From Wickerhamiella versatilis (Eukaryota), in NCBI GenBank assembly GCA_030867685.1, contig JAQOWU010000007.1, positions 62,001 to 126,000 on the forward strand: a stretch of 64,000 nucleotides of DNA, read 5' to 3'. Under the pieces are notes generated by a model that did not search any database, was not told the origin of the DNA, and saw nothing but the letters and a program-made list of their open reading frames with translations. This document shows positions 6,485 through 58,770 of the stretch, piece after piece (the first letter of the stretch is position 1; each line of letters opens with the position of its first letter). The position numbers and the translations under genes were made by a program.

Positions 6485-6701
6485 AGTGGGCTATCTTGCG
6501 TTGCCCTGACCAAGCCGGATCTCTACCGAACCGACCCATTCATAGACAACGAAACGAGTCGATGATTATCTTGCATTATCCAACTAAAATAAACATAACC
6601 ATGGGGCTGAGACATAAATCTCTTGTTATTGACTTGTTTTAAATCCCTGCCTAGATGCAAATAGATAGGACTGAGATATCTTGCATTGTCGAACCTGCCA
6701 G
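6485..6701 (+). repeat. Cluster of three dispersed-element copies (6485, 6567, 6673)
   Basis: agtgggctatcttgcgttg; tatcttgcattatccaac; gagatatcttgcattgtcgaacc. Confidence 0.85.
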
Positions 6702-6820: not shown

Positions 6821-8875
6821 ATGAGATTAATTCCTGCTCTATTCGGACTAGTTGGATCCGTCACCATATCAGGAAAATCCTCCAACACTTCGTCCAGTAC
6901 CCTTATTGGCATAGAGTTTGAGGATCTTAATCACTCGGGGGATGGTGGTATATACGGCGAGCTGCTGATAAACCGGGCTTTTCAAGGGGCTAGTCGACCT
7001 GATAACTATACCGAGCTGGCTAATACGACATTATCTTTGTCTGACGATGAACCTTTGTCTTCGGCTCTTCCTCATACCCTGAAGGTTGAAGGTGACGGAT
7101 TCTATAATGGTGGTTACTGGGGTATTAATGTGCAAAAAGGGACAACGTACACAGCACGATTTTATTATAAAGGTGATGCGAAAAACTTCACTGTATCGTT
7201 AAAGAGTATCGATGAAGAGACTGTATTCGCGTCAGCCACACCTCATAAAGTGACTAACGGTTCCCGTATTTGGGTCCCACGATCCAATGGATATCAATTA
7301 TATGAGGCCAAGCTGATTCCACAGAAGTCTGCTCCTGATTTCGATAATGGGCTCTTTGTCTCGACCAAGGGCGATGGGGGCTATTTTGGCATGGTTTCTC
7401 TTTTCGGAGAGACGTACAATAGCCGAGAAAATGGTCTGAGAAACGACCTTGCAAAGGTAGCTGCGGATTTTTCCCCAACATTCCTTCGTTTTCCTGGTGG
7501 TAATAACCTCATGGGCCATACCTCAGACTTCGAAACTCGCTGGAAGTGGAACAACACGATTGGCCCTCTTGTGGATCGCCCTGGGCGATATGGCGATTGG
7601 AATTACTGGAATACTGATGGACTTGGGCTCCACGAATATTTCGATTGGATGGAGGATATGAGCTTGGAACCTTTATTAGGGGTGTGGGCTGGCTATAGCC
7701 TGGACCATCCCAACAGTCACTCGGGATATAGTGTACCAAAAGATCAGCTTAATCGTTACATTGAAGATGTCCTTAATGAACTTGAGTACATCACAGGCAA
7801 TACGAGCACACACTATGGAGCTCTGAGGGCCAAAAATGGCCGTGAGAAACCATGGCATTTAAAATATGTGGAAATTGGTAACGAGGACTACTTCACAGAC
7901 ACGTATTCGTATCGGTTTCCAGCTTACTACCATGCGATTAAAGAGAAATTCCCTGATTTGGTCCCAATAGCTTCAGGTGCCGTTGGCGTGGATTTCCCCG
8001 ATGAACATATGCTTGTCGACATTCATCGATATAAGAGCGCTTCGGAACTAGTAAGTACATTTGACGAGTTCGATTCTTGGCCCACCAATAACACCGGGGT
8101 CTTGGTAGGCGAGTACAATGGTGGTGTTCCGACGATGGAGGTATCCTCGTCTGAGGCAGCCTATCTTATCGGACTTGAGAGAAATTCCAACAAGGTACTC
8201 GCTTCATGCTATGCATCTTTTATGTTTAATGCGAATTCGACGGGAGGTGTACAAGCCTTTATCAGCTTTGATCCTGGCAATATTTGGCTAAGCACAAGCT
8301 ACTATGCTCATAAAATAATCGCAACAACAGTAGGAAGTCGGATTTTAGAGATTGACGATGCTCACTATGATCCACTATACTATACTGCGAATATTTATGA
8401 GAATAATGACACCATTCATGTTCACATTGCCAACCCCAGCTCGAATAGGACGAAATTTTCCGCCTCGCTAGATGTTCAAGGCTTCAAAATAATGTCAGCA
8501 GCAGGCCAGGCAATCTTTAACTCCTCTGGGTCCGCAGGAAATGTCCCACGAAACACAACTGATATCCTCCCACAGAACGTATCTATTTCTCACAACGATC
8601 AGAACTTTTCTCTCTCTGTGGATCCTTATTTTGTAGGCGCAATTACTCTGAAGAGCTACAACAGCACCACTAATGCCAGCTCTTCCTATAGTGGGAGTAG
8701 CGTGTCTTATACCTCAGCAACCAATGAGAGACCCGGTGATGCTACTGCTACCGCAGTACCGTCATCAGGCAGTCCTTCTGTTTCCACGTCCTCCAGCTCC
8801 TCCTCAACTGGTGGCGTAGGTAGACAAAGTACCGTATCATCTCCTTTCATCTTTTTCCTAATGCTAATGTTGTAA
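6821..8875 (+). CDS. Secreted GH51 alpha-L-arabinofuranosidase with a Ser/Thr-rich, probably GPI-anchored C-terminus
   Basis: Motifs FEDLNHSGDGGIYGEL, LRFPGGNN, EIGNE (acid/base) and VGEY (nucleophile). N-terminal signal peptide and a hydrophobic C-terminus. ATG at 6821. Confidence 0.92.
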   Translation: MRLIPALFGLVGSVTISGKSSNTSSSTLIGIEFEDLNHSGDGGIYGELLINRAFQGASRPDNYTELANTTLSLSDDEPLSSALPHTLKVEGDGFYNGGYWGINVQKGTTYTARFYYKGDAKNFTVSLKSIDEETVFASATPHKVTNGSRIWVPRSNGYQLYEAKLIPQKSAPDFDNGLFVSTKGDGGYFGMVSLFGETYNSRENGLRNDLAKVAADFSPTFLRFPGGNNLMGHTSDFETRWKWNNTIGPLVDRPGRYGDWNYWNTDGLGLHEYFDWMEDMSLEPLLGVWAGYSLDHPNSHSGYSVPKDQLNRYIEDVLNELEYITGNTSTHYGALRAKNGREKPWHLKYVEIGNEDYFTDTYSYRFPAYYHAIKEKFPDLVPIASGAVGVDFPDEHMLVDIHRYKSASELVSTFDEFDSWPTNNTGVLVGEYNGGVPTMEVSSSEAAYLIGLERNSNKVLASCYASFMFNANSTGGVQAFISFDPGNIWLSTSYYAHKIIATTVGSRILEIDDAHYDPLYYTANIYENNDTIHVHIANPSSNRTKFSASLDVQGFKIMSAAGQAIFNSSGSAGNVPRNTTDILPQNVSISHNDQNFSLSVDPYFVGAITLKSYNSTTNASSSYSGSSVSYTSATNERPGDATATAVPSSGSPSVSTSSSSSSTGGVGRQSTVSSPFIFFLMLML

Positions 8876-8876
8876 T

Positions 8877-8904
8877 TGGGCTATCGTGCATTGTCCAACC
8901 AGTC
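8877..8904 (+). repeat. Dispersed element, near-complete copy abutting the GH51 stop codon
   Basis: TAA(8873-8875)-t-tgggctatcgtgcattgtccaaccagtc. A degenerate copy lies at 9360-9379, just beyond the stop of the next gene. Confidence 0.92.
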
Positions 8905-9387
8905 CGGTGTCGCTCACAAAAAATGGGAAAAGTGGTGATAGCGAAAAATACAAGAGGACTGTAAAAATAAATAGTCTTTTCTTCGTATCGCTTGATAGTT
9001 CGTCTTTAGACAGATTGGTAATTCCCTGTCTAGCTTGATTACGTATACAGCTCTTCAGTGGGTGATGAGGTATGTGGCTTAACCTGCATATGCATATCGG
9101 CCGCGATGAGTCGGTATGCACTGTTCGGTTCGGGTGAATCTGTATGCATGTTTCGGCTCGGATTGTTTCACTTGCAATGTCGAGTCACGGTCAAAGACGA
9201 TATTGGAGCTCCACTGGATAGATTTAAAATATACCAAATGGATGGATCGCTAGTCAGTATTCCAAGATTATCCCATATACATAACTTGGTCCTAAAAAAT
9301 TCTAAGAGCAGAGTGCATGCATGCAATAATTCGGGTGCAACAAGGAGACAACACAGATATGGGCTATCTAATATTGTCCGGACTCAT

Positions 9388-13329: not shown

Positions 13330-14729
13330 TAAGGTAGATTTAGAGTTCTAATTATCCACTATATTACGTGGAAGGTGACTCATGTAATTTAACCCGTCCG
13401 CATTGGACAGCACCCGTCTAGACATAAACATCGATCTAGCCTACTCGTTTTCCGCAGAACAATTTAATGTCTGAATGGATATTTGGTGGACAGCATTTTC
13501 AGCTGATTGTCCTAATGCTGTAAAGAATATCTCTTACAGAATATTTTGTTGTCAGCTCAATAGTTCCCATCAATGTGACCTTTGAGTGCCAGATCAACGA
13601 GGTTGGGTATGCACTTATCAGTCTTGTGAGCAATATCAATTTGATGCCTCCATAATGTTCAGAATTGTTCAAGCAGCAGATTAAATATATGTATTTATGA
13701 TGTCAAATCATGGGTCATAATTTCCTAACCAAAGAATCTTGTATACCTTCGGCATCCAATTAAATGAACACGATACTTATCATGAAACTTACTGATATCT
13801 GGATACTTAATCAATATTTAAATATCCAAAGCATGGCGGAGGTTCAGCGTATAGACTACTACCGCACATTACTCAGCACATAACGGTGCATGTACAATGG
13901 TAGTAGTGTCATTGGGAGACAGGTATAGCATAATGGAAGAAATCACTGCAAACGACACCCTTATTTTAATCATATGCAATGAGATTCACCTTCAAAGAGC
14001 CTCGCGCTTAAAGAACTGTGATTGGATGTAAGGGATGTATAAAACACTATAGAACGTGCTTTGTCCTCAAAGAAGTGAGATGTAAATAGCGTCCAGGTCG
14101 GGTCATGTTCCCGCGTCATCGCTGTGCTTCTCAGAGGGCTTCATATAGACCACTCGAGATTCATGAATCTCTGGACTGTGAGCGCCAAATCATCACCAGG
14201 GCTTAGATATTCCAATAGCTAATTAATTATCAAATATCAATTGACCAACATGTGTGTGGTCTACCAGACAAGTCAGGTTAATCTCATTACAGTGTGCCAA
14301 TCAACAAGAGGCACGTTTTTGCTATATTCGGGCAATCAGGCGCTAGCTTTCGGCGGCGCTGGACAAAGCTGCTACGCGAAAACGCTTATGCAGGCGAACA
14401 AGGTACCTACCATCCTATTATGAAGCAACATCTACTTTAAAGTAACTCAGCGTGATTCCAGTCGCTACATAACTGATATATTTTCTACAACAGCTAACAA
14501 GCGTACTTCCACACAAATCACATTATCTCGCATTCCACAGGGTAGGGGGTAAGGAAAAGTATGCCGATTGTACACATTACGGTGACTCAGCTAGGAACTT
14601 AGTTCCAATACTTTTTCAAAAAGAAATTAGACACCAATAGCAAAGGGAAAATATTCGTTTAAAGTCGTACCTGCACGTAAATGATTGCTGTGGATCTCGT
14701 CGTCATTAATGAGGATATACGGCCTAGAG

Positions 14730-15318
14730 ATCCATCGAAAAGGAGCCTTGGCTGTAAAGGACGAATATTATGACTCTAGACACCAATTAATATATAGAAA
14801 CTCTCAAGGACTCGAGTCACATCCAAGGTTTTGACGTTCGCGAGGCATCAATCCTTCCGGGAATAATTTACTTACACACCCATCGGGTCGGAGGGACAGA
14901 GGTGGTCACGGGCATTGATCTGTTTGGGTCTACCTAGAAATCTGAATGGCCGAGACTCATCAGGGATATTGTGCCAAATAAAAATGAAGGGGAAAGGCTA
15001 TTTGGGAGAAGTGGGATCTTCCTATTATAAATGACAAAGAAAGAGGGGTCTTTGCCTACCCTGAAATCTAAATGCTGCTAATTTTATTGAATATATGGTA
15101 TTATGTGGTATAGATTTCACTTGCTATGGTTGAATACTGCGGTACTTGATATTCTCGACATAAATGAGAGAACAGGGGCACCAAGAGGAGGTATAATGGG
15201 GTATGACTCTAAAGGGAGGTTAACAGGCGAGTTAAAAGAGACAGCTACAATTCTCACAGAAGAAGCTTCTGAACATATCGAAAATGGAATTTTCTCTACA
15301 AAATTCAAGTTGGCATAA
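14730..15318 (+). pseudogene. Fragmented amidohydrolase-3 (YtcJ-like) remnant
   Basis: Collinear fragments across frames: GALAVKD, FDVREASILPGIIYLHTH (metal HxH motif, 14830-14883) and HLLWLNTAVL...TGAPRGGIMGYDSKGRLTGELKETA. Boundaries are approximate. Confidence 0.65.
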
Positions 15319-15660
15319 ACGGAATACAAGTTGAATCAAAGAGTGATCGTGGTGTTTCGCCACGACTCTTATTCTACACTGGAAGCGAAATGTCGAGTGA
15401 GACCCAAGACCTAATAATAATAATAATCCTATCCTAATGACTAAAATATAACCAGAATTTGCGCTAACATCGCCGACCAAAAGGAAAAATACATTGGTAT
15501 CTGAGATGAAGTCTGAAATGACGGATAAAATCTCGGCTTATCGCTGAACTATCATCAACCGACTGAAAACCTCTAAGTTTGTTCGGTAGCATGTAACAAT
15601 CGGTTCCTTGCAAACATACCGGCCGTAAGACATTCTTCGGTCTCTTTATCGTCCTGACTG

Positions 15661-15679
15661 AGACTGCTTGGACAATGCA
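15661..15679 (-). repeat. Dispersed element, right arm plus core only
   Basis: agactgcttggacaatgca, ending 7 bp from the NmrA-like stop codon. Confidence 0.85.
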
Positions 15680-15686
15680 GCCTCCC

Positions 15687-16574
15687 TTATACCTTCTCAC
15701 GCAGAATCTTCGGAAAGATCTCTAGAGTTGTCGCCGGCTTGCCCAGCACTTCCCAAGTTTGCTCCGAATAGAATGGGTCTTCGAGTTTCCCGAATTACTC
15801 AAAAAGATGAGCTACAAATTTCATCCTCGGATTGAGCAGGCCGAGCATTTTGATGACCTAGAGAGGAGCTACGCAAATTTTGAGCGACTTGTCATAATTC
15901 TGAATAAATTGTTCCATTGCCTGCCTGACAGAAATGGCCTCTGGCCCCTGAATCGGACAATGCTCCTGCATTCTCTCAGGAGCTTGGAGCGCCTTGACTA
16001 CTTGTTTGGCGTAATCAGCGACACTAATCCAGTATACTTTTACACTCATATTACCGATCCATTGGAGAGAGCCCTTGTCAATCATATTTGGCAGCAACTC
16101 CATAAAATGCGTTGGCGCAAAAAATGTGTGAGGTATAACAGATTCCGCGATGACTTTGTGCCCTTCCATCTGGATGATATTTGGCGTCATATTTATTGTT
16201 CCTGATATTCTTCAATGCCGGTGGATAGCCCCTAAGAGCCCCTATCTTAGCAATATATTGAATACTCAGCCCTTGCACAGCAGTTATGATATTTCGAACG
16301 CCCTCCCGCTCCTCGTAGAAAGGGAGCGTCAGGTCGCCGTCTCGGTGGCGAGATTGAGATAGATTGCGTCCACAGAGTCAAAAGCAGCACGCATTCCCGC
16401 AACATCTTTCAAGTTTCCTTCGATGATCCTGATATTTGTCGGAAGCATTTTTCTGGCTTTCTCTGGTGTGCGCACAATTGCTTGTACTTCGAAGTTCTTC
16501 GCTAGTTCGGCAGTAACTGGCGCACCCAGACGACCAGTCGCACCAATGACAGCTATCTTTCGTATCGGTCGCAT
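15687..16574 (-). pseudogene. NmrA-like / atypical SDR NAD(P)-binding protein pseudogene, bacterial-type
   Basis: IAVIGATGRLG Rossmann motif. The gene can be rebuilt across two frameshifts (about 16330 and 16195) and two in-frame stops (15858 and about 15795) to end ...TWEVLGKPATTLEIFPKILREKV*. Confidence 0.85.
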
Positions 16575-16658
16575 GCACGTGCTCACTCTAGATATCTAGT
16601 AGTTGCTCGAAAGATGACTAAAAGCAATTTAAATTGATATTCAGGTACCGCCACTGCC

Positions 16659-16671
16659 AGATAGTCCACTG
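16659..16671 (-). repeat. Dispersed element, left arm only
   Basis: agatagtccactg, the reverse complement of cagtggactatct. Confidence 0.65.
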
Positions 16672-16941
16672 CCATGCGTATGAGTAAGCGCCATGGGCAT
16701 TGTCCCATTAGAGGTCATTACCGTCAACAGGCTAGAATTTACGACGGTAGGTTTTGTGCGTTCAATAGGTTTCTAACTGAATGTAGTATGTGTCGTAGTA
16801 AAGCTTACGTTTCCAGAGTCAGAGCTCTTGTATTGTCTAACAAGTCATTGGGTAAAGATATTCATATTCGTCAGAGATAGCAGCCTTATTATTATAACAG
16901 GCAGAGTATTAACTCTGGCAGTATTTAGTTCACTGAACAAG

Positions 16942-16975
16942 CCAGTGCAACTATTTTGCATCGCCCCACCAGTCT
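16942..16975 (+). repeat. Degenerate full-length dispersed element
   Basis: ccagtgcaactattttgcatcgccccaccagtct aligns end to end with the consensus. Confidence 0.7.
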
Positions 16976-17095
16976 CAGTGGGATTAGCTGTTAAAGGAAA
17001 GATTCGGCTTTACACCTTGCAAGACCCTACTATGCAAACTAAATTATTACATATGCTTCTATGTTGGAGAATCATTTATCAGGTCAGTGGTTCTA

Positions 17096-18645
17096 CTAAG
17101 TGGGACTTTTACTAGTTCGGTATAACAAAACCCAAAGCACAAGGCCAATAACTGAGGCAAGTGATGAAACACCGATGCTGAAGTACATTGTTCCTCTCCA
17201 AGCTCTCAATTCTGGATCAGAATGTTCCATCTGCTGGGACAGCTGGTAGTTGACAGTACCTGAAATCCCAAGAAATATTGAAATACCATAGTTAACCGCC
17301 GTAGAAACTAGAGATCCTGAAAGACCCTGCAAGTGAGGCGGAAGACTATCACTTAATATCACTGTAGCACCGGGAAAGGACCAGTTCATACCAAATACAG
17401 CTATCCACCAAAATCCAAAAGTAGACCGCCAATAAGTCTCGTTTACTGGGCAAGTGGCTAGTATCAAATCTGAAGCCAAAAAGGAAACCATACTGAATAA
17501 AAGCACATGACGGCCAAATTCTTTTTTTTTAAGAGAAATGCGCATAAAAAGCATGCGATTCCTCCGCCGACAACAATTGGAGTATTCGTAGCGCCCGAAG
17601 CGACTGTGGTATAGTCTCGCAATACCACGATCATTTGAAAATATTGATAAAGTTTAATGCCATAGGACCCCCAGCCAATAAAGACAATAGTAAGGGTGAG
17701 CATCAGGTTGAGATTTTTGAAAACTGTGGGTTCTAGAAGTGGACTTTTTGCAAACTTTATCTCGTATAGAACGAATACCGCTATAAGAAGAATCCCAACA
17801 ATTAACAAGACAATGATATATGGGCTACTCCAGCTGGCCTCCGGCGCTTGATTCCATGCAAAATTGAACAAAACGAGACCCGACACGCCGAGAATCGAAC
17901 CAATCCAATCTATACTTTGTTTCTTGTTCGGTTCTATGACTGGTATCGTAATCCAAGAAAGGATAAGGGCAACAAAGCAAACTATTGTAAATGCATAAAA
18001 GCCCCAGTCCCATCTTTTTGTCTCAAACCCGATTATTCCCATAAATAAGGTTCCAAAGAATGCGCCAAGTGGTGCGGCGTACCCTACTAGGCAAAAAGCC
18101 ACGTTTTTTGCTAGTGTATTAGGTTTGTAGATACGCCCTATGACCCCCAGAATATTTGGGAGAACAAAAGCCAGACCACAACCTTGAAATGTTCGACAAC
18201 ATACAAAAAAATTAGAATCCACGTAATAGCTTAGCCCACTCAGTAGCGACCAGATTAGGGTCCAAGCGTAACCTGCAAGTATTACGATTTTGGGTCCATA
18301 TCTGTCTCCTAACGATCCACTGAAAAGAATTAATGTGCCCAATCCCAATCCAATACTAGCTATATACCATGTTGCTGTGGCCTCAGACACGTCGAAATCG
18401 TGCTGAAGCATTTTTAGAATAGGGAGGACTGTTGTCGTGGCACTTAGTGCCAGTAGCTGGCTAAGCATCGCTGTAAACAAGAATAAATATTCGAGTGAAC
18501 GGCTCTTCGCAAAAAACTTAGGATTAGTGAACTTTTGACTCCGCTCCAAATTTTTTGGGACGACTTCAGATTGTTCAGATGTGAACTCTCCGTCATATTC
18601 TTCTGTTTTTCCGGACGATGGGCATGGTGAAACTCCTGAAATCAT
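17096..18645 (-). pseudogene. Atr1-like DHA2 MFS drug:H+ antiporter split by one frameshift (pseudogene or sequencing error)
   Basis: Two overlapping ORFs (17464-18645 and 17096-17554) join at an A9 run (17522-17530). Motifs GSLGDRYG, FNFAWNQAP and TYWRSTF...GMNWSFPGAT. Confidence 0.82.
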
Positions 18646-20848
18646 GAATTCCTTTCGAAGCTATAGTTGTCAACTTGAATTGAAATAAATTTACACAAAT
18701 TATATAATATACATAGGTGAGGCTCTCTGTAGGCAAGCATGGTGCGGACCTCAAAGCGGAGATCGGAGGCTCGGTAATATGCTCGGCTAATAAAACGTCT
18801 AAAAAGTTGTTTTAAGTAGTGGAGTATCAAAATTTAGCTTGCTGATTGAGCCATCAATTCGGATTTCAGAAACCTTGGCCCACATTATTGTAAATGACTT
18901 GGACTTCGTTTGCTTAATTCGCGACGGGATGGTGGAAACTTTACGCATTCAGTACAGTATAACACTAGCTAGCTTGTTCATTATTCGTCTTACTGGTAAA
19001 ATTCCGCTTTGTTAATCTCCAATTAAGTTGTTGTGAAGAATTAGGGTCCCAAGCACCAATCCAAGACTGGCGAGATACCATCTAGGTCACACTCCACTCA
19101 CTTTAAAGTTTTGCTGAAGTATTTTTAAAATCAGTATCACCATCGTACTCGTAATTAAGACCAACACTAGCCAGAGATTGCTAATACACTAAGGAAGTTG
19201 GTTTTTCTCGTGCGCTAGGTTTGAGCAGTAAATAAGCCTACTATCAGACAGTACGTTTAAAATCGCTTTTAACTATCCCAAATAACCAGAAAATATACGG
19301 AGGTAAACAGTTGTAAACCCCACCACCCGAGATCTGCGCGACAGAGACTGACTACTTTTGTTTCTCCGCAGATTAGTAAGTGCGGAATTACTAATACAAT
19401 AAGGTTGGCTATCTCCGCATGGTGCTGGCTCAGAGGGACAGTTGCTTCTAGTCCATATTGTTTTGTATTGATAGTGTGATAATGCCACAATTTACAATCA
19501 AAGTTATAAAAATGTCGTGCTTTTGAGTTTAATGAGACCTAATGGTGGGCCGTTTCCAAATCTCGGGTAAATGTAATGGATAGTCCAATTAGTATGAAAT
19601 ATCGCCCATAGTATCACATTACCACATAAGTTTACCGATGCTAAGATCTAGGTGGATATATGCTACGGTCTGCCGCTTTATTGACCATATCTCCCCATAG
19701 CTCGAACCTTTTGGCATTATGCGACGAATCAGTATCTTTTTTATCATTTTAATTGTACCATTATCTTATTTCGTCGTGCTTTGCAAGACTATAATAGAAA
19801 ATACTATCTTTGCCGTCATTATCAAGAACCTCATTCATCATCTAAAAGGTATAGCTCATCCTTATCCAATTAAAGCCAGTGTCTTTCAAATTATCAAATA
19901 TCTCATCTGCTGATGCCTATTTGAGCGCTTCTGGTATGATAGACTCTGTTTGCATTGGTCCACTAACACCAGCCTATTTCGCACTTACATTTCGGGAGTT
20001 GACTGAATTAGATCCACTGGTAACAAAGGACGGATACTGCCATTCAATGTCTTTTGCAAAAACCAAGAGAATAATTAGCGGCATTTGACCAACTTATCTG
20101 TTTATTCAGATCTGTGTTTTATAATGCGAAAACTGATTTACTTGACTGACTGTTAGCTTGAGGAGGTTTTGTAATTTATCTGCAATACTATATAAAGAAT
20201 AATATACATGGGAGATATACAGGCTTGATAAGTGATTCAAGTTGTTTATGCATGCTCAAGAAATAATAGGTTGGACCATATTGTAGATAGGGATTTGATG
20301 GCATATGCGGCTGACCATCGACTTATTCAATACATTGATAACAGGATTAATTTGATCAATAAAAGCTGCCCCATGAAGAGTTTGATTTTAACTTTCTAGA
20401 TCTTATGCGAACGCGCCAGTCTTACAATTGTCGATATATTTACAATCTCAAGCCACTTCATCGTATCATCTCTGTCATTGATAGTTGCCCTCACTCCAGT
20501 GCGTGCGTCCTTCAAGAGAGTTGCGACTACTTTGTTAATTCCGTAGGTATCTATATTTGAGAAAAGATGCTCCGTTTCTTTGAACAGCATCTTTGAGAAA
20601 AGGAAGGGAAGTATGCTAACCAGGATCGAGCCTGAGGTTCGATTCTGTAGCTCGCATTCAAAATTTCACTACTAGTCTGTCCCAATTTGCCTTGATCCAA
20701 TTCCATACTATCTCCTTCATTCATAAGTGTAAATTCAATTATACGAGTTTGAATCCTTCGAAAGCTATTTTCTGTGTTATCTTGATAAGTTAAAGGTCTA
20801 TATTATATATGAAGTTAAAATATCCGCTTTATACGTATTTAAAGAAAG

Positions 20849-23983: not shown

Positions 23984-26900
23984 TCAAATTGCCTTAATGA
24001 AAGCGAGTACATCGCTAGGACCAACTACGTCGCCTTCAGAAACAGGAATACTGAGTACCAGGAACTTGCTAGATCCAAGCTGATCTTGATCTTGAACTTG
24101 CACTTCCTCTACGTCCTCGTCACTAGATTCAGCCAAACTCGAGGGAGAGATGTGAATCTCCATTTTCATTGCCTCTAGTATCACGATGCCAGTATCATTT
24201 TCAATAACTTCACCTGCCTTAACCTTTATCTTGAAAACATTCGCAGCCATTCCTCCAGTTATAGGAATCACGTTAGAGTCTTCAGGTGACAAGAGTCCCT
24301 CGTTCTCCTTCTTCGACAATGCTGCTTCCTTCACCTCACTCTCCCACTTAGTAAATGACTCTGCATCTTCATTGGCTAGCTGTAGAGTTGATTTTATTCT
24401 TTGATTGTTTATTTTTTTCGACTCCTTTTCCACCTTCTGGTGGAAAGCAATATATTCGCCAAAATTCAATTCAACCTCTTTGGTCTCAAGCTCAAGTTTA
24501 CCAGATACAAGTAAATTGTTGAGCCGAGTGAGTTCAGCTTCATCGACTTCATAGTACTCGATTTGGTCGAAGTTCGAGAAAAACCACGGCTTGCCTGGTT
24601 TCAAGGTTTTCAAGCTACTAAAAGTGTTCCAGCATAAGTCAGGTAAAGTCATTGCCCATATCATGAATCCACCGGGGCAATCAATTGAGTAGATGGACTG
24701 GCCTACAGAACCACTTCCAATAGCACCCTTTGGCGTAAACGTACGTGGTGGGTTGTATTTTCCTGTCTTGAGCCGCGTACGTGGGTCCAGGTTAACAGTA
24801 AGCGTATTCCCGCAGAAAAAGGAGACAGCAGTGACGATTTGCCTTTGTCCGATTATCATCCTCTTGAAGTCTTCATCTGATTGCAAGTTGTTGGCTTTCT
24901 TGATATAATCAGCATTACTTGGGAGATAAGTTGCATACGGTCTCTGCGAATGCATATATCGCTCCAAGCAATGATCAAGAGCCGAATGCTCAAAAGTGCA
25001 AGGTAGCTTAAAAAGGGTGCTTTTGATGCTTAGATCGTGAGGTGGACTAATAGTCTCCTCCAATCTCTTAATCTTCTCAAGAACGCTATCTCTCGTCACA
25101 ATATTGACATCGAATATTACGCCAACAGCGCCACTGCATGACTCAACACGAATTATCTCTTTGTTGACAGAAGGGTCAAGCATTCTTTCGAGAACTCTTT
25201 GACGGCCACAATTTACCATATCAAATTCTTTGACACCAAAGTCCACAAGGAGCATTCCCTCCCCTGCCTGCCGAATATTGAATTGAGGTATTTCACCATG
25301 TTGGCCACGGTGATACAAAAGACTCTGGAACTTATCTTGAGATAAAACCCCATCACTTTCTAGGGATGGATACGTAGGAAATGGTGCCTCCCCCCTTAGG
25401 GCTATTTCAACAGCTGCGATGAAATCAGTAGCATTCTTATCTAACTCCAAAGCTTGCTCGTATGTCACGGGTCTAAACTTAATTTTTGACCCTACTTGAG
25501 CTTGCCCATTCTTCCACCAATCACATAACGTTGGTACAGCGATGCATGTGAATCCAGATAGCGTTCCCCCATCAACTCCGAAGAGGGCTAGTCCATTTCC
25601 AATCACACTTATACCACATGTAGGGTAAGGATACTCCAGAATATTGCTGGGATGCGAGCCACCATCTCCACCATCTTTACGCGAGAAAACATCAGCCTGC
25701 CCATCTAGTTTGGTGCAGCCACGATTAGAATTGATGTTGACATGATATTCTGTTTCGTAGAACTTCTTCAGTTTATCCATACTGCATATATCTGAGGTAT
25801 CATGTGGACCACTAAGTGTGTGGATTATCCAAGCTTCATTATCATTCTCGAGCTTAGGAGGGATAGCGTAATCAGGAAAATGCATGCAGTGCCGGACATT
25901 TTGGTACTCAGGAGAATAAGAGATACCAAGACAGTCACCCTGCATGATAATTCTGCCCTGATGGCCACCAAGACTCAAGGTTGGGGTGCACGATTTGGAA
26001 CCCAAATAATGCGCAACATCAGGCAGACCACCCTTAATAGCAAGGTATGTACGCGCTCCTGTGCCAGTGGGGGCACCAATTGAAACCAGAGACCCAGCTG
26101 GAACTTCAATGGCGGAGAATGCCGGCGCCTGTTTCTTGTTGATTTTGAAGACGAAGTCGCCGCCAGCTAGACATATAGTTGCAGGGGAGTGGAATTTGAT
26201 TTTTGGCCCTTTCACCGAAATTTCAAGCGCTTCTGTATTTTTATCATTGCCAACTATCATGTTCGCAAGTTGCATATGGAGCGGATCTGCTGCACCACCA
26301 AGAGGTACGCCACCACTGTAGCCTACGCGACCTGGCAAATCCTGAATAGTTGTGTACGCCCCACCCGTGAGAAACTCCATAAGCCTGGGACGAAAGGTAA
26401 AGCTTTTGGCCAAAAACGTCGTTAAGGTACGTCCGATAGCGAATTCGTGGCTCTCTAAAATGGCGATCAAATATTCTTTATTGGTAGAGGGTCCCAAAAT
26501 TGAACTCTTGGTCAACACCTCACCCAATCCCAATCTAGCCTTCTCTCTCATTTCACCCCATACCATATATTTAGCGAGAAGAGGGTCAAAATAAGGCGAT
26601 ATTCTGGATCCTGTGGCAATCCAGTGGTCAACACGCGTCTTGCAATCTGGGGCAACTTTCTCATAAATGTCGACGAGATGAAGGATTCCCGGTGAGGGCT
26701 GAAAGTTCTTGGCAGGATTCTCAGCATAAAGTCTTGCTTCAATTGCATGGCCGTTGGGAATTCCGCTCCCTTGGAACACAGCTAATTCTTGAGTTGGTAT
26801 GCCAGGCTTGCCTCTAGCCTCATAATCAGCCTGAAGCAGCATCATGTAAACAAGGTCTACACCATAAACAAGCTCAGTTATACCATGCTCCACCTGGAGC

Positions 26901-27790
26901 CTTGTGTTCACTTCCAAGAAATAAAATTTAGACGTCTCATCATCAAGAAGAAACTCAACAGTGCCTGCAGATTTATACTTTACAGATGATGCAAGTTTCC
27001 TGGCACTAGCACAAAGTTTTTCACGTAGTTCCATATTTTCACCTACAAAGGGGCTTGGACTTTCTTCAATTACTTTCTGGTGTCGACGCTGGATGCTGCA
27101 CTCACGCTCACCGAATGTGACGACGTCGCCTTGGCCATTTCCAAAAACCTGAACTTCAATATGCCGGCCTGACTGAATATACTTCTCCAAAAAAACACCT
27201 GCATTTTTGAATAGGGTCTGTCCACGTGAAACTACCTCACTGTAAGCACCGGCTAATTCAGACTCATTCCAACAAACTTTGAGACCCATTCCTCCACCTC
27301 CAGCTGTAGACTTCAGCATTATAGGAAAACCAATCTTTTTCGCTAATTCCTGGGCTCTTTGAGGGCTTTCAACCAGTGGAGAGCCAGATAATATGGGAAC
27401 AAAATTCTTTTCAGCAAGTTCACGAGCAATGTGTTTAATTCCGAACTGTTCTATGGTTTCTGATGCTGGTCCTGCAAATATTATACCGGCCTTTGCAATT
27501 GCATTGGCAAATTCACTGTTCTCAGACAAAAATCCGTAACCAGGAACAACTACATCAGCCTTTTGGTCAATTGCTATGTTGACCATTTGGTTAGTATCAA
27601 TATACGCAGCACTACCAACACCATTCAGAAGAACGCTGATATCTGCTTCACCGACATGGGCTGAGCCTGCATCTTCTGGAGAATATACTGAAATGGAAAT
27701 CAGCCCGTGCTCTCTACAGGAACGAATTATTCTCACAGCTATTTCACCGCGATTAGCTATCAGCACTCTCCGAATCTTTTCGAATACCAT
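23984..27790 (-). CDS. lamA: Stand-alone urea carboxylase-like protein (biotin carboxylase + carboxyltransferase + biotin carrier), LamA-like
   Basis: Motifs LIANRGEIA, GGGGMG, RECSIQRRHQK, EVNTRLQVEH and the biotin site EAMKME. There is no N-terminal amidase domain, and the gene is divergent from LamB. Confidence 0.85.
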   Translation of the reverse strand: MVFEKIRRVLIANRGEIAVRIIRSCREHGLISISVYSPEDAGSAHVGEADISVLLNGVGSAAYIDTNQMVNIAIDQKADVVVPGYGFLSENSEFANAIAKAGIIFAGPASETIEQFGIKHIARELAEKNFVPILSGSPLVESPQRAQELAKKIGFPIMLKSTAGGGGMGLKVCWNESELAGAYSEVVSRGQTLFKNAGVFLEKYIQSGRHIEVQVFGNGQGDVVTFGERECSIQRRHQKVIEESPSPFVGENMELREKLCASARKLASSVKYKSAGTVEFLLDDETSKFYFLEVNTRLQVEHGITELVYGVDLVYMMLLQADYEARGKPGIPTQELAVFQGSGIPNGHAIEARLYAENPAKNFQPSPGILHLVDIYEKVAPDCKTRVDHWIATGSRISPYFDPLLAKYMVWGEMREKARLGLGEVLTKSSILGPSTNKEYLIAILESHEFAIGRTLTTFLAKSFTFRPRLMEFLTGGAYTTIQDLPGRVGYSGGVPLGGAADPLHMQLANMIVGNDKNTEALEISVKGPKIKFHSPATICLAGGDFVFKINKKQAPAFSAIEVPAGSLVSIGAPTGTGARTYLAIKGGLPDVAHYLGSKSCTPTLSLGGHQGRIIMQGDCLGISYSPEYQNVRHCMHFPDYAIPPKLENDNEAWIIHTLSGPHDTSDICSMDKLKKFYETEYHVNINSNRGCTKLDGQADVFSRKDGGDGGSHPSNILEYPYPTCGISVIGNGLALFGVDGGTLSGFTCIAVPTLCDWWKNGQAQVGSKIKFRPVTYEQALELDKNATDFIAAVEIALRGEAPFPTYPSLESDGVLSQDKFQSLLYHRGQHGEIPQFNIRQAGEGMLLVDFGVKEFDMVNCGRQRVLERMLDPSVNKEIIRVESCSGAVGVIFDVNIVTRDSVLEKIKRLEETISPPHDLSIKSTLFKLPCTFEHSALDHCLERYMHSQRPYATYLPSNADYIKKANNLQSDEDFKRMIIGQRQIVTAVSFFCGNTLTVNLDPRTRLKTGKYNPPRTFTPKGAIGSGSVGQSIYSIDCPGGFMIWAMTLPDLCWNTFSSLKTLKPGKPWFFSNFDQIEYYEVDEAELTRLNNLLVSGKLELETKEVELNFGEYIAFHQKVEKESKKINNQRIKSTLQLANEDAESFTKWESEVKEAALSKKENEGLLSPEDSNVIPITGGMAANVFKIKVKAGEVIENDTGIVILEAMKMEIHISPSSLAESSDEDVEEVQVQDQDQLGSSKFLVLSIPVSEGDVVGPSDVLAFIKAI

Positions 27791-27898
27791 GCGCAGATAA
27801 TAAATTAGTTGTCAAATAAATTCAGTGATATAGTATTGTACTTAAGGAATTATTTGCTTATAAAGTTTGAACGTTATCTCCTATCGCGCCACAACGGT

Positions 27899-27945
27899 AG
27901 ATGACTGAGCTCCGCAGATGACTGAGCTCCGCAGATTGCTCCGCA
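27899..27945 (+). promoter_or_regulatory. 17-bp tandem repeat (AGATGACTGAGCTCCGC x2 plus a partial copy) in the lamA/lamB divergent promoter
   Basis: Seen directly. Contains three TCCGCA (CGG-type) motifs and two TGACTGA motifs. Confidence 0.7.
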
Positions 27946-28022
27946 TTACAAATACTTTTTGTAGTTATATATTAGCTTCAGGGCTCTCTAAACAAATATT
28001 TATCAAGTTCAACTATCGGAAT

Positions 28023-28853
28023 ATGTTTACGAAGAATGCTAACTCTCATATTGCGCCTCAACTCGCTGGAAGCGCAGAAGACAACGTGCTAATTCCAAAT
28101 CATGAGCTTAATTGCGACATGGGTGAGGCTTTTGGCCCATGGAAAATGGGACCCGACGAGGAGCTTATGCCAATTATTGACGCGGCTAATATCGCCTGTG
28201 GTGGTCATGCTGGTGATCCTCAGACTATGCTTAAGACTGTACGTCTGGCTAAGAGGCATGGTGTGCGTGTAGGGGCACACCCAGGATTACCTGATCCTCT
28301 TGGTTTCGGTCGTCGCCGCTGGTCCTTGTCACCTGAAGAAGTTTTCACTCTAATTCTCTACCAAGTAGGAGCGCTTCAGGGTATAGCTCGAGCGGAGGAC
28401 GTCGAGGTTTCATATATAAAGCCCCATGGTGAGCTTTATTTTTATATAGAAAGAGATGACGAAATTATGAAGGCTGCTTTGAGAGCCGCTAAGACACTCG
28501 GGCTTCCCGTCATGGGTGGAAAGAGCAAACGCTATCTTGAAATGGCCCATGAGTTTGGCGTAAAGTTCATTCAAGAAGCTTACGCTGACCTAAACTATAC
28601 GCCATTTGGGGCCCTAATAAAGCCACCTTCAGAGCCTAAGTTTCGAAAGACACCTGAGGTCATCTCAAACTTCGTATTACGAGCGGGAGAGGCTGATCAA
28701 GCAGTGGATACTGAAGGAAATATCATTGACCTCAACTTTGATGGGGCTCACATCACATTTTGTCTTCATTCGGACATCCCAGGTGTACTTGAAAACGCCA
28801 CAGCAGCGAGGAAAGCTATCGATACTATTAATAAGAGAAAATATGGAGTATAA
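28023..28853 (+). CDS. lamB: LamB/YcsF (PxpA-like) lactam utilization protein
   Basis: Motifs LNCDMGE, ANIACGGHAGDP, GAHPGLPD..GFGRR, YIKPHG and CLHSD. The probable start is ATG 28023. Confidence 0.92.
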   Translation: MFTKNANSHIAPQLAGSAEDNVLIPNHELNCDMGEAFGPWKMGPDEELMPIIDAANIACGGHAGDPQTMLKTVRLAKRHGVRVGAHPGLPDPLGFGRRRWSLSPEEVFTLILYQVGALQGIARAEDVEVSYIKPHGELYFYIERDDEIMKAALRAAKTLGLPVMGGKSKRYLEMAHEFGVKFIQEAYADLNYTPFGALIKPPSEPKFRKTPEVISNFVLRAGEADQAVDTEGNIIDLNFDGAHITFCLHSDIPGVLENATAARKAIDTINKRKYGV

Positions 28854-34063: not shown

Positions 34064-34179
34064 TGTGGTTTATTTTGCATTGTCCAGCCAGTATCTGGTG
34101 CTACAACTGGGGAGCTGGTTATACTTGACTAAGATACCGCCCCCTAGAAATGCAAGATAGTCCTTATGAGCTATCTTGC
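34064..34179. repeat. Cluster of dispersed-element copies (34064 +, 34149 -, 34169 +)
   Basis: tattttgcattgtccagccagt; aatgcaagatagtcc; agctatcttgc. Confidence 0.8.
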
Positions 34180-34326
34180 TCTTGCGAGAATATAAAGTTT
34201 TAACATAAGCTTCATAAGATCTAGTAAGTTGCTAAAGGCCATAATATCCTATTATCCCACTAGGTATCCCATCAGGGTACAAATGTCCATGTTCACCACT
34301 TGGTCGACGACTGATTGTTGGCCTAA

Positions 34327-36924: not shown

Positions 36925-36966
36925 GCGACAAGACCAGTGGACTATCTTGCATTGTCCAACCAGTCT
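36925..36966 (+). repeat. Dispersed element, extended 42-bp copy
   Basis: gcgacaagaccagtggactatcttgcattgtccaaccagtct, 16 bp from the siderophore transporter stop codon. Confidence 0.95.
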
Positions 36967-39578: not shown

Positions 39579-39620
39579 GCGACAAGACCAGTGGGCTATC
39601 TCGCGTTATCGAACCAGTCT
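39579..39620 (+). repeat. Dispersed element, extended 42-bp copy
   Basis: 37/42 identical to 36925-36966 (counted by hand). Confidence 0.93.
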
Positions 39621-40925: not shown

Positions 40926-40956
40926 AGTGGGCTACCTTGCATTGTCTAACCAGTCT
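40926..40956 (+). repeat. Dispersed element, complete copy
   Basis: agtgggctaccttgcattgtctaaccagtct. Confidence 0.95.
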
Positions 40957-41015: not shown

Positions 41016-42518
41016 CTAATCCACATATCCATATTCATGAAAACTATTGAGGATTTGAGATTTTAATGATTCCGGATACGAATGCTCAAAGGAAGCTGCT
41101 GACGCTCTCATTTCACCCTTGAACTGCTCGGGAAAAAGGCAGTTTATAATCATGTTCCCCCCTTTTCCTGACGCAAGATCGTCACCATTAAGGTAGGGTA
41201 CAAGTGGAAAAGTGCCAATATCCGGATAGCTGATAAAGTCATGCTTTGGATGTGCCCGACTGGCTAGGGTCCATACCACCTGGTCTATATTGGTGATGTC
41301 AATATCATTACCCACGATAATAACCTTCGGCACCAGATTGCCAGCATGGGTTTTGAAATGAACTTGAGCCACTCGGTCTGCGAACTCTTTTGCATTGGTA
41401 TTCAATTTGGCTAGTTGCGCGACATCGACCGATATAACAACCCAGCAAGCAACCGCTTCGTATGAACACCAAGCCATGTCCACTGGTAGTCCTCCCTTTT
41501 GAAGGTCTTCAAGTACCTGTGCCGAAATCATAGTACACCAAATGGTATGATTTTCTTCAGCGGGTAGCCCAGCGACACAGATGGGTAGGATAGGGTTATT
41601 TCGAAACGTCACCGCATTGACGTTAAAAACAGGCTGCACGTGGCCTTCAGTATGTTGATAGCCATGGTATTCTCCCATAGGTCCCTCTACCGCGGTTTCG
41701 TGCATTGAAATTTCTCCTTCAAGCACGATCTCAGCATTCTCAGGTACCCATAGATTGTTTGTTTCAGCCTGAGCAACCTTAAGTGGCTGTCCTAACAAAG
41801 CTCCTATATATCCTGGCTCACTCACCCGGGCTGGAAGGGGCATTCCTGAAACAGCTATAGCAGCGGGTGCGGCACCAAGCGCAAAGGCCCAAGGAGTTGG
41901 CTTGCCTTCGCGAGTCCACATGTCTCTTATCATACCAATATGCTGAGTGGGAATTGTAGGCCCTGTGAGTTTGTTGTGGTCAACTAGCATCATGCGCCCA
42001 ATGCTCCAACTGTCCCAGGTCTGATCAGGCGATTGAACTATATGGAAGCCGTAAGTACCAAGGTAGCGACCTCCATCTTTCTCATGTAAAAAAGGGATAG
42101 GGAGCCGGTTGAGATCCACTTCGTCTCCCACCCACTTGTTTTCCTTTACAGGACCCGTTTTGACTCTAACGGGGTCAATAGGTGGTGCCTTCATGGCATC
42201 ACGAATACAAGCAATCAACTCGTGCGGCCGGGTATTTTCAGGCAGGCCGAAATGCAACGCTAGGCGACTATACTCGCGTGATTTATCCTTCAGCATACCA
42301 GCCGGTGCGCCCAGTATACGAGAACCAGGCAGAGCATCCCTGATGTTACTGAATAGAGGAGCCGGCAGCCGCTGCTCGTATACTCTTCTGCAAACTGCAG
42401 CAACTTCAAGATATGAGTCCACTTCCTTTCTCACATCAACCAAGTCGTTTCTACTGCGTAATTCATTCAGAAACGCACGAAAATCAAGCGCCTTGTCGAT
42501 CAGTTTCTTATTCGACAT
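41016..42518 (-). CDS. UbiD-family prFMN-dependent decarboxylase, HudA/PA0254 (pyrrole-2-carboxylate decarboxylase)-like
   Basis: Motifs LHEKDGGRY, WSIGR, EIVLEG and EGPMGEYHGY. From memory, the whole sequence resembles Pseudomonas HudA more than yeast Fdc1. Confidence 0.9.
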   Translation of the reverse strand: MSNKKLIDKALDFRAFLNELRSRNDLVDVRKEVDSYLEVAAVCRRVYEQRLPAPLFSNIRDALPGSRILGAPAGMLKDKSREYSRLALHFGLPENTRPHELIACIRDAMKAPPIDPVRVKTGPVKENKWVGDEVDLNRLPIPFLHEKDGGRYLGTYGFHIVQSPDQTWDSWSIGRMMLVDHNKLTGPTIPTQHIGMIRDMWTREGKPTPWAFALGAAPAAIAVSGMPLPARVSEPGYIGALLGQPLKVAQAETNNLWVPENAEIVLEGEISMHETAVEGPMGEYHGYQHTEGHVQPVFNVNAVTFRNNPILPICVAGLPAEENHTIWCTMISAQVLEDLQKGGLPVDMAWCSYEAVACWVVISVDVAQLAKLNTNAKEFADRVAQVHFKTHAGNLVPKVIIVGNDIDITNIDQVVWTLASRAHPKHDFISYPDIGTFPLVPYLNGDDLASGKGGNMIINCLFPEQFKGEMRASAASFEHSYPESLKSQILNSFHEYGYVD

Positions 42519-42583: not shown

Positions 42584-42614
42584 AGACTGGTTGGACAATG
42601 CAAGATAGCCCACT
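42584..42614 (-). repeat. Dispersed element, complete consensus copy, followed by a partial second copy (42625-42670)
   Basis: agactggttggacaatgcaagatagcccact. Confidence 0.95.
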
Positions 42615-43625
42615 TCACTACCCGAGACTGGTTGGATTTATTTGCGATCGAACCACTTATTCTCCTAAAGGTGTATAATTCTCTATGTCGGGATCGGGTA
42701 GGCGTTGCCGAAAGTTGATTTATAATCCAACGCAACGTATTGATCCATTAAAATGTAGGTATGTTCGTTTGCCCCTAGCAGTGTTCAGCGATGCGATACT
42801 CAATAGTAAATAGATAGATAATATACGATTATGTCTCGCAATATCTAAGTCGTGAGTATAGCATTAAGTGGTCGACCAGATTATGTTGTAGATAAAGCTA
42901 ACGGGATAATAGGATGCTTATAAACAAATGTATTGGCATAAACAGAACTTGAGCCTTCACATATGCCTCTGAATAGAATAGTGATCTGTAGATTCTGGTG
43001 TCTAGCATCGCCCAGCCGATCCTAAATTAGGTTGTCTTACGTCATTCAGCAAATCACCTCTTAGGTTATCTAGCATTTCTCAGCAAATCAGATTTCATAG
43101 ATTTCATATCAGACATTCCGGAGACATGTACTGAGAGAACTGGTGAAGCACGCTTAGCTCTTGATAAACAGTACTATCTATTGCTAGCATTTATTAACAG
43201 TATGAGTCAATTCCATTGTTGTACCTGAGGCTGCTAGCCTAACCTGGACACTAAGGTGGCTTATACCGGCCCCAGAAACATTCTCCAAGTAACATCTTCA
43301 CTCCATCCATTGATTCAGCTAAGCACCGAGCCGTAGGAATGCTGGCATGTAATTCAGGTATTGTAGTAACAACTTACTTCATAAGCAGAGCGTACAAGAG
43401 GAACAAAATGTCTCAAAGTGAATTTATTTTTGCAGACCCTGTGGTTGACTTTCCTAATGGGCTCCCTGTAGGACCTCGGAGCACAGGCTTTGTGCTGAGG
43501 CTAGTTGACGCTGTTTTTCTACTAGTTGTTTGACCTGATGTGACACCACTTCGTAATAGACGTCATAATTGCAATTAACGAAAGAAGGCTACCCTGGATT
43601 GTCATTATTATTAATTTTATTTCAG

Positions 43626-45954: not shown

Positions 45955-47040
45955 TTAAATATCTTTCAACCATTCCACAATGGTGTCCTGCATAATTTCG
46001 GTATTGTTTCCTGACAGAGTAGAAGAGTGACCACCAGGTAAGTAGGTAAGGCTCAGATTAGGCGTACGTTCTCCAAGTCCAATATTCATGATGTCAGTTT
46101 GAATGGAGTCATTTTCCATTTGCCAAACTTTCACTCTGTCCACTGGTAGATTTTGTCGATACATCTTCCCGCTTAGAATTCCAGGAACTACTCGGTTAAA
46201 GACATACCATTGGTATTTCTGCTCCCCGTGAGCCATGGAATCCTTGTCGTAGTCACCGAAATTGTATATTAATGCCCTGGCAATCTCACTATTCAACACA
46301 TCGGCTAGTGCATTGGCATTTGATGAATTTAAAGCATGCAATCCATCCTGTATCTTCGATTCAATCCAGTTGGGTAAGCCTGTTTCGGCAAGTACTTCAG
46401 GTATAACAGGCACTGCAATTTCTTCTTCGTAACTCAACATAATCCATTGTGAGAGGACCTTTGTCAGGTTCTGTTGGTTAAATACAAGGTTTTTTGTCTG
46501 ATCTATTAAGGCTTGATAGCCTAAATCAAATGATGGCCCTCCAGTGGACATGATAGCAGCAATTCTATGACTGTCAGGATACATAGAACAATGCTCTGAA
46601 GCGATAAATGGACTCCAGGTACCTCCCCATACAATGACTCTTTTGTCGGGGGATACAGCATCAATAACAGCACCCATTTCATTAGCTAGATTTGTGATAC
46701 TATAACCTTCCGGTCCCCATGGGTGGCCGCTTTTTCCAGCTCCCCGCTGATCATAGAGAACTACATGTACGCCCCTTTTAGCGAGTGTCGCTGCAAAGTC
46801 ATTATACTGACTAGCTCCAGGTGGCCATCCGCCTGTAGCTATAACTGTTGGGTCGTCAGGGTTACCATACTCATAGTATGAGATGGGAATATCCTGATAA
46901 TAGACATATTTTAGAGAGTTGGCATCGTGGTATGAACTCGGGACATCAGTTGTAGAGGATCCATAAGGTGCTATCTTAGACGCAACAATACCACCCAAAG
47001 CCCCATGGATGGCAAGCAATAATGAACTTAACCACATCAT
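45955..47040 (-). CDS. Secreted alpha/beta-hydrolase fold protein (epoxide hydrolase/EphD N-domain-like) with atypical catalytic motifs
   Basis: Signal peptide; GNPDDPTV..GGWP, YDQRGAGKS, a GGTWS elbow and LPGGH. Confidence 0.75.
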   Translation of the reverse strand: MMWLSSLLLAIHGALGGIVASKIAPYGSSTTDVPSSYHDANSLKYVYYQDIPISYYEYGNPDDPTVIATGGWPPGASQYNDFAATLAKRGVHVVLYDQRGAGKSGHPWGPEGYSITNLANEMGAVIDAVSPDKRVIVWGGTWSPFIASEHCSMYPDSHRIAAIMSTGGPSFDLGYQALIDQTKNLVFNQQNLTKVLSQWIMLSYEEEIAVPVIPEVLAETGLPNWIESKIQDGLHALNSSNANALADVLNSEIARALIYNFGDYDKDSMAHGEQKYQWYVFNRVVPGILSGKMYRQNLPVDRVKVWQMENDSIQTDIMNIGLGERTPNLSLTYLPGGHSSTLSGNNTEIMQDTIVEWLKDI

Positions 47041-47265
47041 CCAAATTACTAGATCTGTAATTTCATTATATATATTAATTCATATCTATATATACGAAAT
47101 AACGCGAGTATTATATAACGGTATTTGTTAATAACCATAAACATGCATTACAGCTGTTTCTGTAGAGCATCGGAATTGTGTGTTTTTGTGCAATCATGAA
47201 TAGTTATTCATTGATACTATTAGCCAGTTAATTATATGAGACGTTATGCATCCTTGAAATTGCCG

Positions 47266-47282
47266 ATGCAATATAGCCCACT
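47266..47282 (-). repeat. Dispersed element, core plus left arm
   Basis: atgcaatatagcccact. Confidence 0.75.
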
Positions 47283-51861: not shown

Positions 51862-51986
51862 GATTGACTGGGCAATGTAATTAAAACTGCGGTCACTGAA
51901 AGTAGATAGTATTTATTTCCTTGACCTCGACAATTCTACCCAATTAACGTGATTTATATATTCTAGCTAAATTTATTTGTACATAA

Positions 51987-52016
51987 GGCTGGTTGGACAA
52001 TGCAAAATAGCCCACT
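51987..52016 (-). repeat. Dispersed element, complete copy
   Basis: ggctggttggacaatgcaaaatagcccact. Confidence 0.93.
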
Positions 52017-58739: not shown

Positions 58740-58770
58740 ACTGGGCTATCTTGCATTGTCCAGTCAGTTT
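58740..58770 (+). repeat. Dispersed element, complete copy
   Basis: actgggctatcttgcattgtccagtcagttt. An inverted right-arm remnant lies at 59216-59231. Confidence 0.92.

Follow-up and report, generated by a model that had tools for sequence, protein, structure and literature searches.

Bacterial genes in yeasts are already known, and the way in which they enter yeast chromosomes is mostly guessed because the sequence that preceded the insertion has been lost. The locus described here raises the question of whether such an event can be read from its scar and, if so, what kind of event left it. Within a stretch of 64,000 nucleotides (hereafter the window), a gene of bacterial type lies between two pieces of a 31-bp motif that together make up one copy; since sister copies of the motif allow the target to be reconstructed, the scar of an old transfer becomes readable at base level. 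This base-level view of the target is new, as is the question of whether an abundant 31-bp motif attracts foreign DNA. The host is fungal: the 25 ORFs of the window include a Zn2Cys6 and Fungal_trans factor as well as members of other families of fungal type. The window has a GC content of 42% and uses CTG 13 times per 1000 codons.

Anatomy of the probably split motif copy

The left half of the split copy occupies 15661-15679 on the + strand (AGACTGCTTGGACAATGCA) and corresponds to motif positions 1-19, with 18/19 bases identical, and the right half occupies 16659-16670 on the same strand (AGATAGTCCACT) and corresponds to positions 20-31, with 11/12 identical. The variant base of the right half is also present in the copy at 36936. 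A preliminary description of this DNA had proposed that the two flanking pieces form one complete element, and this is what is found: the halves abut exactly, and the motif is contiguous in nine other copies. It had also called the element a minus-strand one, which has to be corrected, as both halves are on the + strand and share the orientation of the copies at 42584 and 51986. When aligned by an nhmmer profile, 15661-15679 falls on model positions 1-19 and 16655-16670 on positions 16-31.

At the left junction (...AATGCA / GCCTCC), the similarity to the motif breaks off right after the TGCA that ends the left half, the following 12 bases agreeing with positions 20-31 at 3/12 by manual count. 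The motif halves missing from the two sides are not found at the insert ends, where the matches, counted in the same way, are 3/12 and 7/19. The right junction (...GGTACCGCCACTGCC / AGATAGTCCACTGCC) is more complex. It carries an 8-bp direct repeat, CCACTGCC, which is present on the + strand at 16651-16658 and again at 16666-16673 and flanks AGATAGT, so that the whole arrangement extends from 16651 to 16673. By our estimate, a repeat abutting a junction in this way would occur by chance at ~1e-3. The repeat fits a short templated patch from repair, and it fits equally well an earlier tandem right half minus 7 bases; whether no target bases were lost thus hinges on how it is read. It includes, directly before the right half, a TGCC that resembles motif positions 16-19 (TGCA) and weakly supports a duplication of the TGCA core.

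The insert proper (15680-16658) measures 979 bp and is made up of one minus-strand gene, 84 bp before its ATG, and 7 bp after its stop, in agreement with the earlier statement that the roughly 980 bp between the halves hold only the gene. Its GC content is 46.7%, compared with 40.8% and 42.0% in the 2-kb flanks. Adjoining the right half is a possible degenerate inverted copy of the motif (16683-16714, minus strand), a weak match with an exact 9-mer at 16697-16705, ~17-18 of 31 bases identical by eye, and an nhmmer E value of 17.

The 31-bp motif across the window

The 31-base consensus is matched five times with at most three mismatches in the window and zero times in 100 shuffles. With nhmmer, nine strong full copies are detected, and the 64 kb hold a further ~20 partial ones. 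Two strong copies lie on the + strand, at 42584-42614 (31/31, the intact reference) and 51986-52016, and seven on the minus strand, at 1465-1495, 8875-8905, 34064-34094, 36936-36966, 39590-39620, 40926-40956, and 58740-58770. In an ungapped scan, all 29 pieces scoring at least 11 fall within the 26.7 kb of non-coding DNA, a density of about one piece per 0.9 kb of such DNA in the window. Partial copies mainly retain the centre (positions 14-24) or the right part (positions 17-31), and the AGATAG core is common to both types. Right-side partial copies stand alone at seven other places, and left-only pieces are rare, with three other non-coding examples that are all weaker than the piece at 15661. 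The motif forms clusters in both orientations, such as those at 6485-6700, 34064-34180, and 1445-1610, and is found in divergent, tandem, and convergent intergenic regions, at 5' as well as 3' gene ends. Motif pieces do not lie closer to ORF ends than positions drawn at random from non-coding DNA (median 226 vs 337 bp, P = 0.07), and they also flank fungal-type genes, for example, an arabinofuranosidase gene at 2 and 126 bp.

The flanks of the five best copies share no sequence, and none of the nine strong copies is accompanied by target duplications. Terminal inverted repeats are likewise missing, since one end of the motif is not repeated in inverted form at the other. An RNA gene was considered and rejected, with no Rfam match at gathering thresholds and no tRNA found by ARAGORN. 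A hairpin or dyad structural element was rejected as well, because the weak dyad in the consensus (GGACAAT vs ATAGCCC, centred at position 19) pairs at only 5/7 positions and shows no compensating changes. When metagenomes were scanned with a degenerate 21-base version of the motif core, a single match was obtained, a chance one inside a bacterial pyruvate kinase ORF. Exact-sequence literature searches, with most subscription journals and supplements outside their scope, gave nothing relevant, and no repeat of this kind was found in the Geotrichum candidum genome paper; that genome, at 48% GC, also does not fit the 42% of the window. Within the window, the region 13330-17095 has no further repeats.

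Because the motif has an AGATAG (GATA-type) core, is excluded from ORFs, is clustered, and occurs in both orientations, we infer that it is most likely a cis element to which a protein binds, as opposed to a mobile element or a site of recombination. It resembles the sites of GATA-type and general regulatory factors in yeast in being confined to non-coding DNA, in occurring in either orientation and in clusters, and in its presence at both gene ends; it differs from them in that its 31 well-conserved bases are far longer than a usual site. It should be noted that the copies at 36936-36966 and 39590-39620 on the minus strand share a further 11 downstream bases (GGTCTTGTCGC) that are absent from the other copies, and that these two copies are direct repeats flanking an MFS gene. 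Moreover, partial motif starts come after two full copies, one at 42625-42636 and the other just past 58740.

The motif also neighbours a second gene of bacterial type, an intact UbiD-family decarboxylase gene (41016-42518, minus strand) situated between inverted full copies, of which 40926-40956 lies 60 bp past the stop and 42584-42614 lies 66 bp before the ATG. Among the 120 best relatives listed, all those with a name are bacterial, including Paraburkholderia (70% identity), Rouxiella and Pantoea (69%), and Pseudomonas (63-67%); one 98% twin is also among the listed relatives. A gene on a Burkholderia plasmid is 65% identical over 99% of the length. Both of the clearly bacterial-type genes in the window, NmrA-like and UbiD, therefore touch the motif (2/2); given that fungal-type genes touch it too, the link between the motif and bacterial-type genes is a lead, not a finding.

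The gene between the halves and its bacterial relatives

The gene within the insert (15687-16574, minus strand) belongs to the NmrA-like/atypical SDR family and is a pseudogene. It runs from an ATG at 16572-16574 to a terminal TAA at 15687-15689 and can be aligned, over its full length, to bacterial proteins of 297-299 aa (residues 1-292 or 3-294), which are annotated as 'SDR family oxidoreductase' and 'NAD(P)H azoreductase'. Members of this family carry the Rossmann signature GxxGxxG near the N terminus, and the glycine-rich motif GATGRLG is present in the translation of the pseudogene. The ORF at 16329-16586 on the minus strand, with the N-terminal 85 residues, matches the Pfam families NAD_binding_10 (PF13460; 48.6 bits, cut-off 27.2) and NmrA (PF05368; 46.4 bits, cut-off 27), and the 110-aa C-terminal ORF taken alone matched no Pfam family. 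Unlike members of the family, the gene has a reading frame broken in four places, by a frameshift near 16333, a second one near 16192 that restores the frame, a TAG at 15858-15860 at the site of a conserved W, and a TAA at 15795-15797 at the site of a conserved Y. Thus, no NmrA-family protein can be made from it as it stands, and it is a fixed relic, not a working acquisition. The preliminary description, which spoke of a bacterial-type NmrA gene, was right about the type and overlooked the decay.

Judged from sequence comparisons, the gene is bacterial in type. A protein search with its C-terminal 168 residues as the query, in which each stop was written as X, gave 109 full-length protein matches at 59-76% identity to these residues. 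Organism names are attached to 13 of them: 11 are bacteria (Pectobacterium, Trinickia, Pseudomonas, Burkholderia, Paraburkholderia, Dyella, Granulicella, Devosia, and three Gluconacetobacter) and two are Lachancea yeasts. A scan of one genome per prokaryote species revealed 20 loci with relatives at 59-73% protein identity, 17 of which we take to be from acetic acid bacteria. At the DNA level, the gene is 67.7-70.5% identical to the 18 bacterial loci that have the whole gene, the two further loci showing DNA similarity to only a part of it. For comparison, other genes of the same window reach 37-39% (AKR), 32-38% (hydrolase), and 45-47% (LLM domain) against plasmid-borne genes.

The limits of this similarity bear on the insertion itself. 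Along the 18 loci, DNA similarity starts at 15700-15735 and ends at 16556-16576, with nothing outside 15700-16576, and the protein alignment to bacterial relatives covers 16574-15696. The similarity to a potential donor consequently stops inside the half-sites, an outcome in line with the earlier proposal that it should end at the junctions. The spacer upstream of the ATG (16575-16658, minus strand, 84 bp), which is part of the insert, shows no similarity at the DNA level to any of the 20 bacterial loci. Nor is the 31-bp motif present in these donor-like loci, where the best match is 16-20 of 31 bases.

In a quick IQ-TREE analysis of 110 rows, in which no support value is 95 or higher, the window gene groups with the protein P0007 and Lachancea mirantina (SH-aLRT 92), and this group is nested, likewise at moderate support, in a 19-row clade (93) to which L. 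meyersii and Gluconacetobacter sacchari also belong. Because Lachancea and the window gene are placed in one clade, the yeast genes may share a donor group or even an origin. In the protein database searched, no protein of at least 295 aa is more than 76% identical to the pseudogene, in contrast to the UbiD gene with its 98% twin; the database therefore contains neither an intact allele nor an intact paralogue from this species. The GC content at the codon positions of the gene is inside the range of host genes, which, along with the modest GC excess of the insert, fits an old event.

The insert in other lineages

The region 13400-18700 is partly present in 20 of 24 listed public runs, which come from 12 studies, and four runs (X12, X20, X8, and X9) were compared in search of an empty site. 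A contig of the X12 isolate spans 13400-16888 with 63 substitutions, amounting to ~1.8% divergence; none of its 35 gap letters falls within the gene, the CG added after 16648 being in the spacer. Both junctions are spanned by contigs of X20 (15559-16074 and 16524-16722) and of X8 (15584-15982 and 16478-17231), and for X9 none of the pieces listed bridges either junction. Among the pieces listed for the four runs, three of which bridge both junctions, no empty site (a joint across 15680-16658) is seen. The search for an uninterrupted element in another strain, as suggested by the preliminary description, has thus yielded the insert in three of the four runs and no empty site among the pieces listed. 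The ~1.8% diverged lineage X12 carries the same reading-frame defects, without any length change inside the gene. Given that the insert and its frame defects are found in other lineages, they are older than the split of those lineages.

The surroundings vary as well. One indel between lineages, a 183-bp skip at 14597/14781, is located at a direct repeat and not at the motif. X12 ceases to match the window at 16888, 2 bp past a 9/12 look-alike of the right half (16875-16886), and neither X12 nor X20 has cover to the right of ~16900. Contigs of other strains have loose ends at 15269-15347, for which reason the same sequence may recur at other places in the genome. A short ORF at 15091-15315 on the + strand matches positions 99-149 of the Amidohydro_3 profile with an E value of 6.5e-5, below the cut-off, and is probably a truncated amidohydrolase relic, ~345 bp to the left of the left half. 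On the other side, an MFS transporter gene at 17096-18645 (minus strand) is present as two overlapping ORFs (17096-17554 and 17464-18645), a result of either a frameshift or an intron, and so may be a second decayed gene beside the NmrA relic.

How the gene may have entered the chromosome

Given the observed anatomy, the bacterial type and decay of the gene, and its presence in other lineages, the reading that we favour, at a probability of about 0.6, is one old transfer of a single gene, taken up by end joining where a motif copy was broken and followed by decay of the gene. The target would have been a pre-existing copy of the abundant 31-bp intergenic motif, and the inserted piece would have comprised the NmrA-like/atypical SDR gene with 84 bp upstream and 7 bp downstream, placed between motif positions 19 and 20 with presumably no loss of target bases. 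The most likely route would be the capture of a short foreign fragment during end joining of a chromosome break, with the right junction patched by a short local copy (CCACTGCC); the event would be old, and the gene would have turned into a pseudogene later. We infer the end-joining route from the anatomy of the junctions only: since the insert is without complementary halves and the window without a recombinase or transposase, the scar looks like that of end joining and not of a conservative crossover, and the features of the scar, no target loss and a short local duplication, are as end joining would leave them. The proposal that foreign DNA was inserted in the middle of a motif copy is hence probably right, with a bacterial-type gene wholly between abutting halves, whereas the more specific claim of a crossover in TGCA/AG is not sustained by a single case with no recombinase in the window and no missing halves inside the insert. 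Among the points against our reading is that the locus is otherwise rearranged, as indicated by the amidohydrolase relic and the X12 breakpoint at 16888.

The reading presupposes that a motif copy was indeed split. It might instead be that two independent partial copies happen to lie near the ends of the gene, a coincidence for which the frequency of pieces speaks, at ~29 in 26.7 kb of non-coding DNA and with right-only pieces at seven other sites. In a Monte Carlo simulation, in which 6 left-side and 9 right-side pieces were placed randomly in non-coding DNA in 20,000 trials, 4.9% of trials (P = 0.049) gave one or more pairs that were exactly complementary, co-oriented, and no more than 1.1 kb apart, and 31% did so when a slack of four positions was allowed. 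By themselves, these motif statistics are only suggestive of a split, because the motif is abundant and right-side pieces also occur alone. A second complementary pair on one strand is in accord with chance, too. It consists of 42625-42636 (+; an exact copy of positions 1-12, 10 bp past the full copy 42584-42614) and 47264-47282 (+; positions 13-31, 17/19), 4.6 kb apart, and it encloses two hydrolase genes, of which 43626-45548 matches a steryl acetyl hydrolase/alpha/beta-hydrolase family (by Pfam only, with no NCBIfam match). As a candidate for another split, between positions 12 and 13, this pair was rejected, being compatible with chance (0.45-0.72) and enclosing a gene (45955-47040) that is not of bacterial type; the suggested search for other split elements, confined to the window, gave no other pair at positions 19 and 20. 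The case for the split rests instead on the tight bracketing of a foreign gene, the abrupt left end, and the exact abutment: the 15661 piece is the sole strong left-only copy (18/19), the halves join without gap or overlap, and the chance that a foreign gene would be bracketed within 7 and 84 bp is ~1e-4, as estimated by us from piece densities and not simulated. We therefore regard mere coincidence as unlikely.

If a copy was split, the motif may have played more than a passive part. Capture would still have proceeded by end joining under a reading in which the motif is a break-prone or preferred landing site, owing to a fork-stalling protein or as a nuclease target. At 9 × 31 bp, the strong copies make up ~1% of the 26.7 kb of non-coding DNA, yet the single datable foreign insert struck one, the UbiD gene sits between two full copies at 60 and 66 bp, and, post hoc, the X12 breakpoint lies 2 bp after a right-half look-alike. 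Such a preference is nevertheless improbable to us, as the evidence amounts to one split and one bracketing, the arabinofuranosidase gene shows that fungal-type genes are flanked too, the pieces are no nearer to ORF ends than random positions, and the 183-bp skip took place at a direct repeat. Carried further, the motif would be a sequence-defined gateway for foreign DNA, a protein-bound or nuclease-targeted break site through which both the NmrA-like and the UbiD gene entered; this would be a defined entry point for bacterial genes into a eukaryote if true, and we hold it to be rather improbable. Site-specific recombination, with the motif as an att-like site and circular DNA integrated by a recombinase through a crossover in TGCA/AG, could draw on the position of the split, which adjoins the centre of the weak dyad, and on the TGCA at the left and the TGCC before the right half, which could be a duplicated core of 3-4 bp. 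A three-of-four core match has a ~5% chance, though, and the 8-bp local repeat to which TGCC belongs explains it better; the dyad is a weak one, without compensating changes in variant copies such as that at 40926. Furthermore, no recombinase or transposase family is found by Pfam and NCBIfam among the 25 ORFs of at least 180 aa in the 64-kb window, the insert ends are without complementary half-sites, and the case is a single one, all of which renders such an integration very unlikely. Least probable of all, and to be entertained with great doubt, is a mobile unit whose two ends are the halves, whose empty form is the 31-bp copies, and whose cargo is the NmrA gene. The gene does fill the space between the halves almost exactly, and partial motif starts follow two full copies; however, the ends are not inverted repeats of each other, there are no target duplications beside the nine copies, an identical internal joint in all copies would need a 31-bp master element, and in many partial copies just the central or right-hand portion is retained, a pattern expected of a binding site.

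Capture by end joining, the reading preferred here, has parallels. Yeast captures stray DNA at chromosome breaks by end joining, with inserts of mitochondrial DNA and Ty cDNA as examples. The locus resembles such captures in its short insert, the absence of target loss, junctions with little if any homology, and a small one-sided local duplication; it differs from them in that the captured DNA is foreign and includes a whole gene, and in that the event is deduced from the scar alone. Site-specific integration is known from integron cassettes at attI/attC, phage att sites, and the fungal Cryptons and Starships. With these the locus has in common a compact, gene-sized insert central in a repeated, weakly symmetric site, but it has neither a recombinase gene in its vicinity nor a partner site within the insert, it does not form an array, and in the window no other motif copy carries an insert at that position.

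As for other bacterial genes in yeasts, Rolland et al. 2009 (PMC2715888) describe genes of bacterial origin as single small genes with a median of 248 codons and propose capture at double-strand breaks as the mechanism. Like those cases, the present one concerns one small metabolic bacterial-type gene in non-coding DNA, without flanking bacterial sequence, and its ~297 codons come near that median. Unlike in those cases, the target here can be rebuilt from paralogous motif copies and the junction read to the base; and whereas those genes are under selection, the NmrA-like gene is dead. The two Lachancea proteins in the same clade set it apart from those cases in another respect, in that the transfer may not be private to this yeast.

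Other genes of the window

Two further arrangements in the window are worth recording. The 782-aa ORF at 59274-61622 (minus strand) is an unusual fusion of an Oxidored_FMN (OYE-type) part with an NtaA/DmoA-family FMN monooxygenase domain; the latter scores 484 bits (NCBIfam cut-off 280) and is only 45-47% identical to plasmid-borne genes. At 23984-28853, a urea-carboxylase-like gene of 1268 aa is arranged divergently to a LamB/YcsF (PxpA-type) gene.
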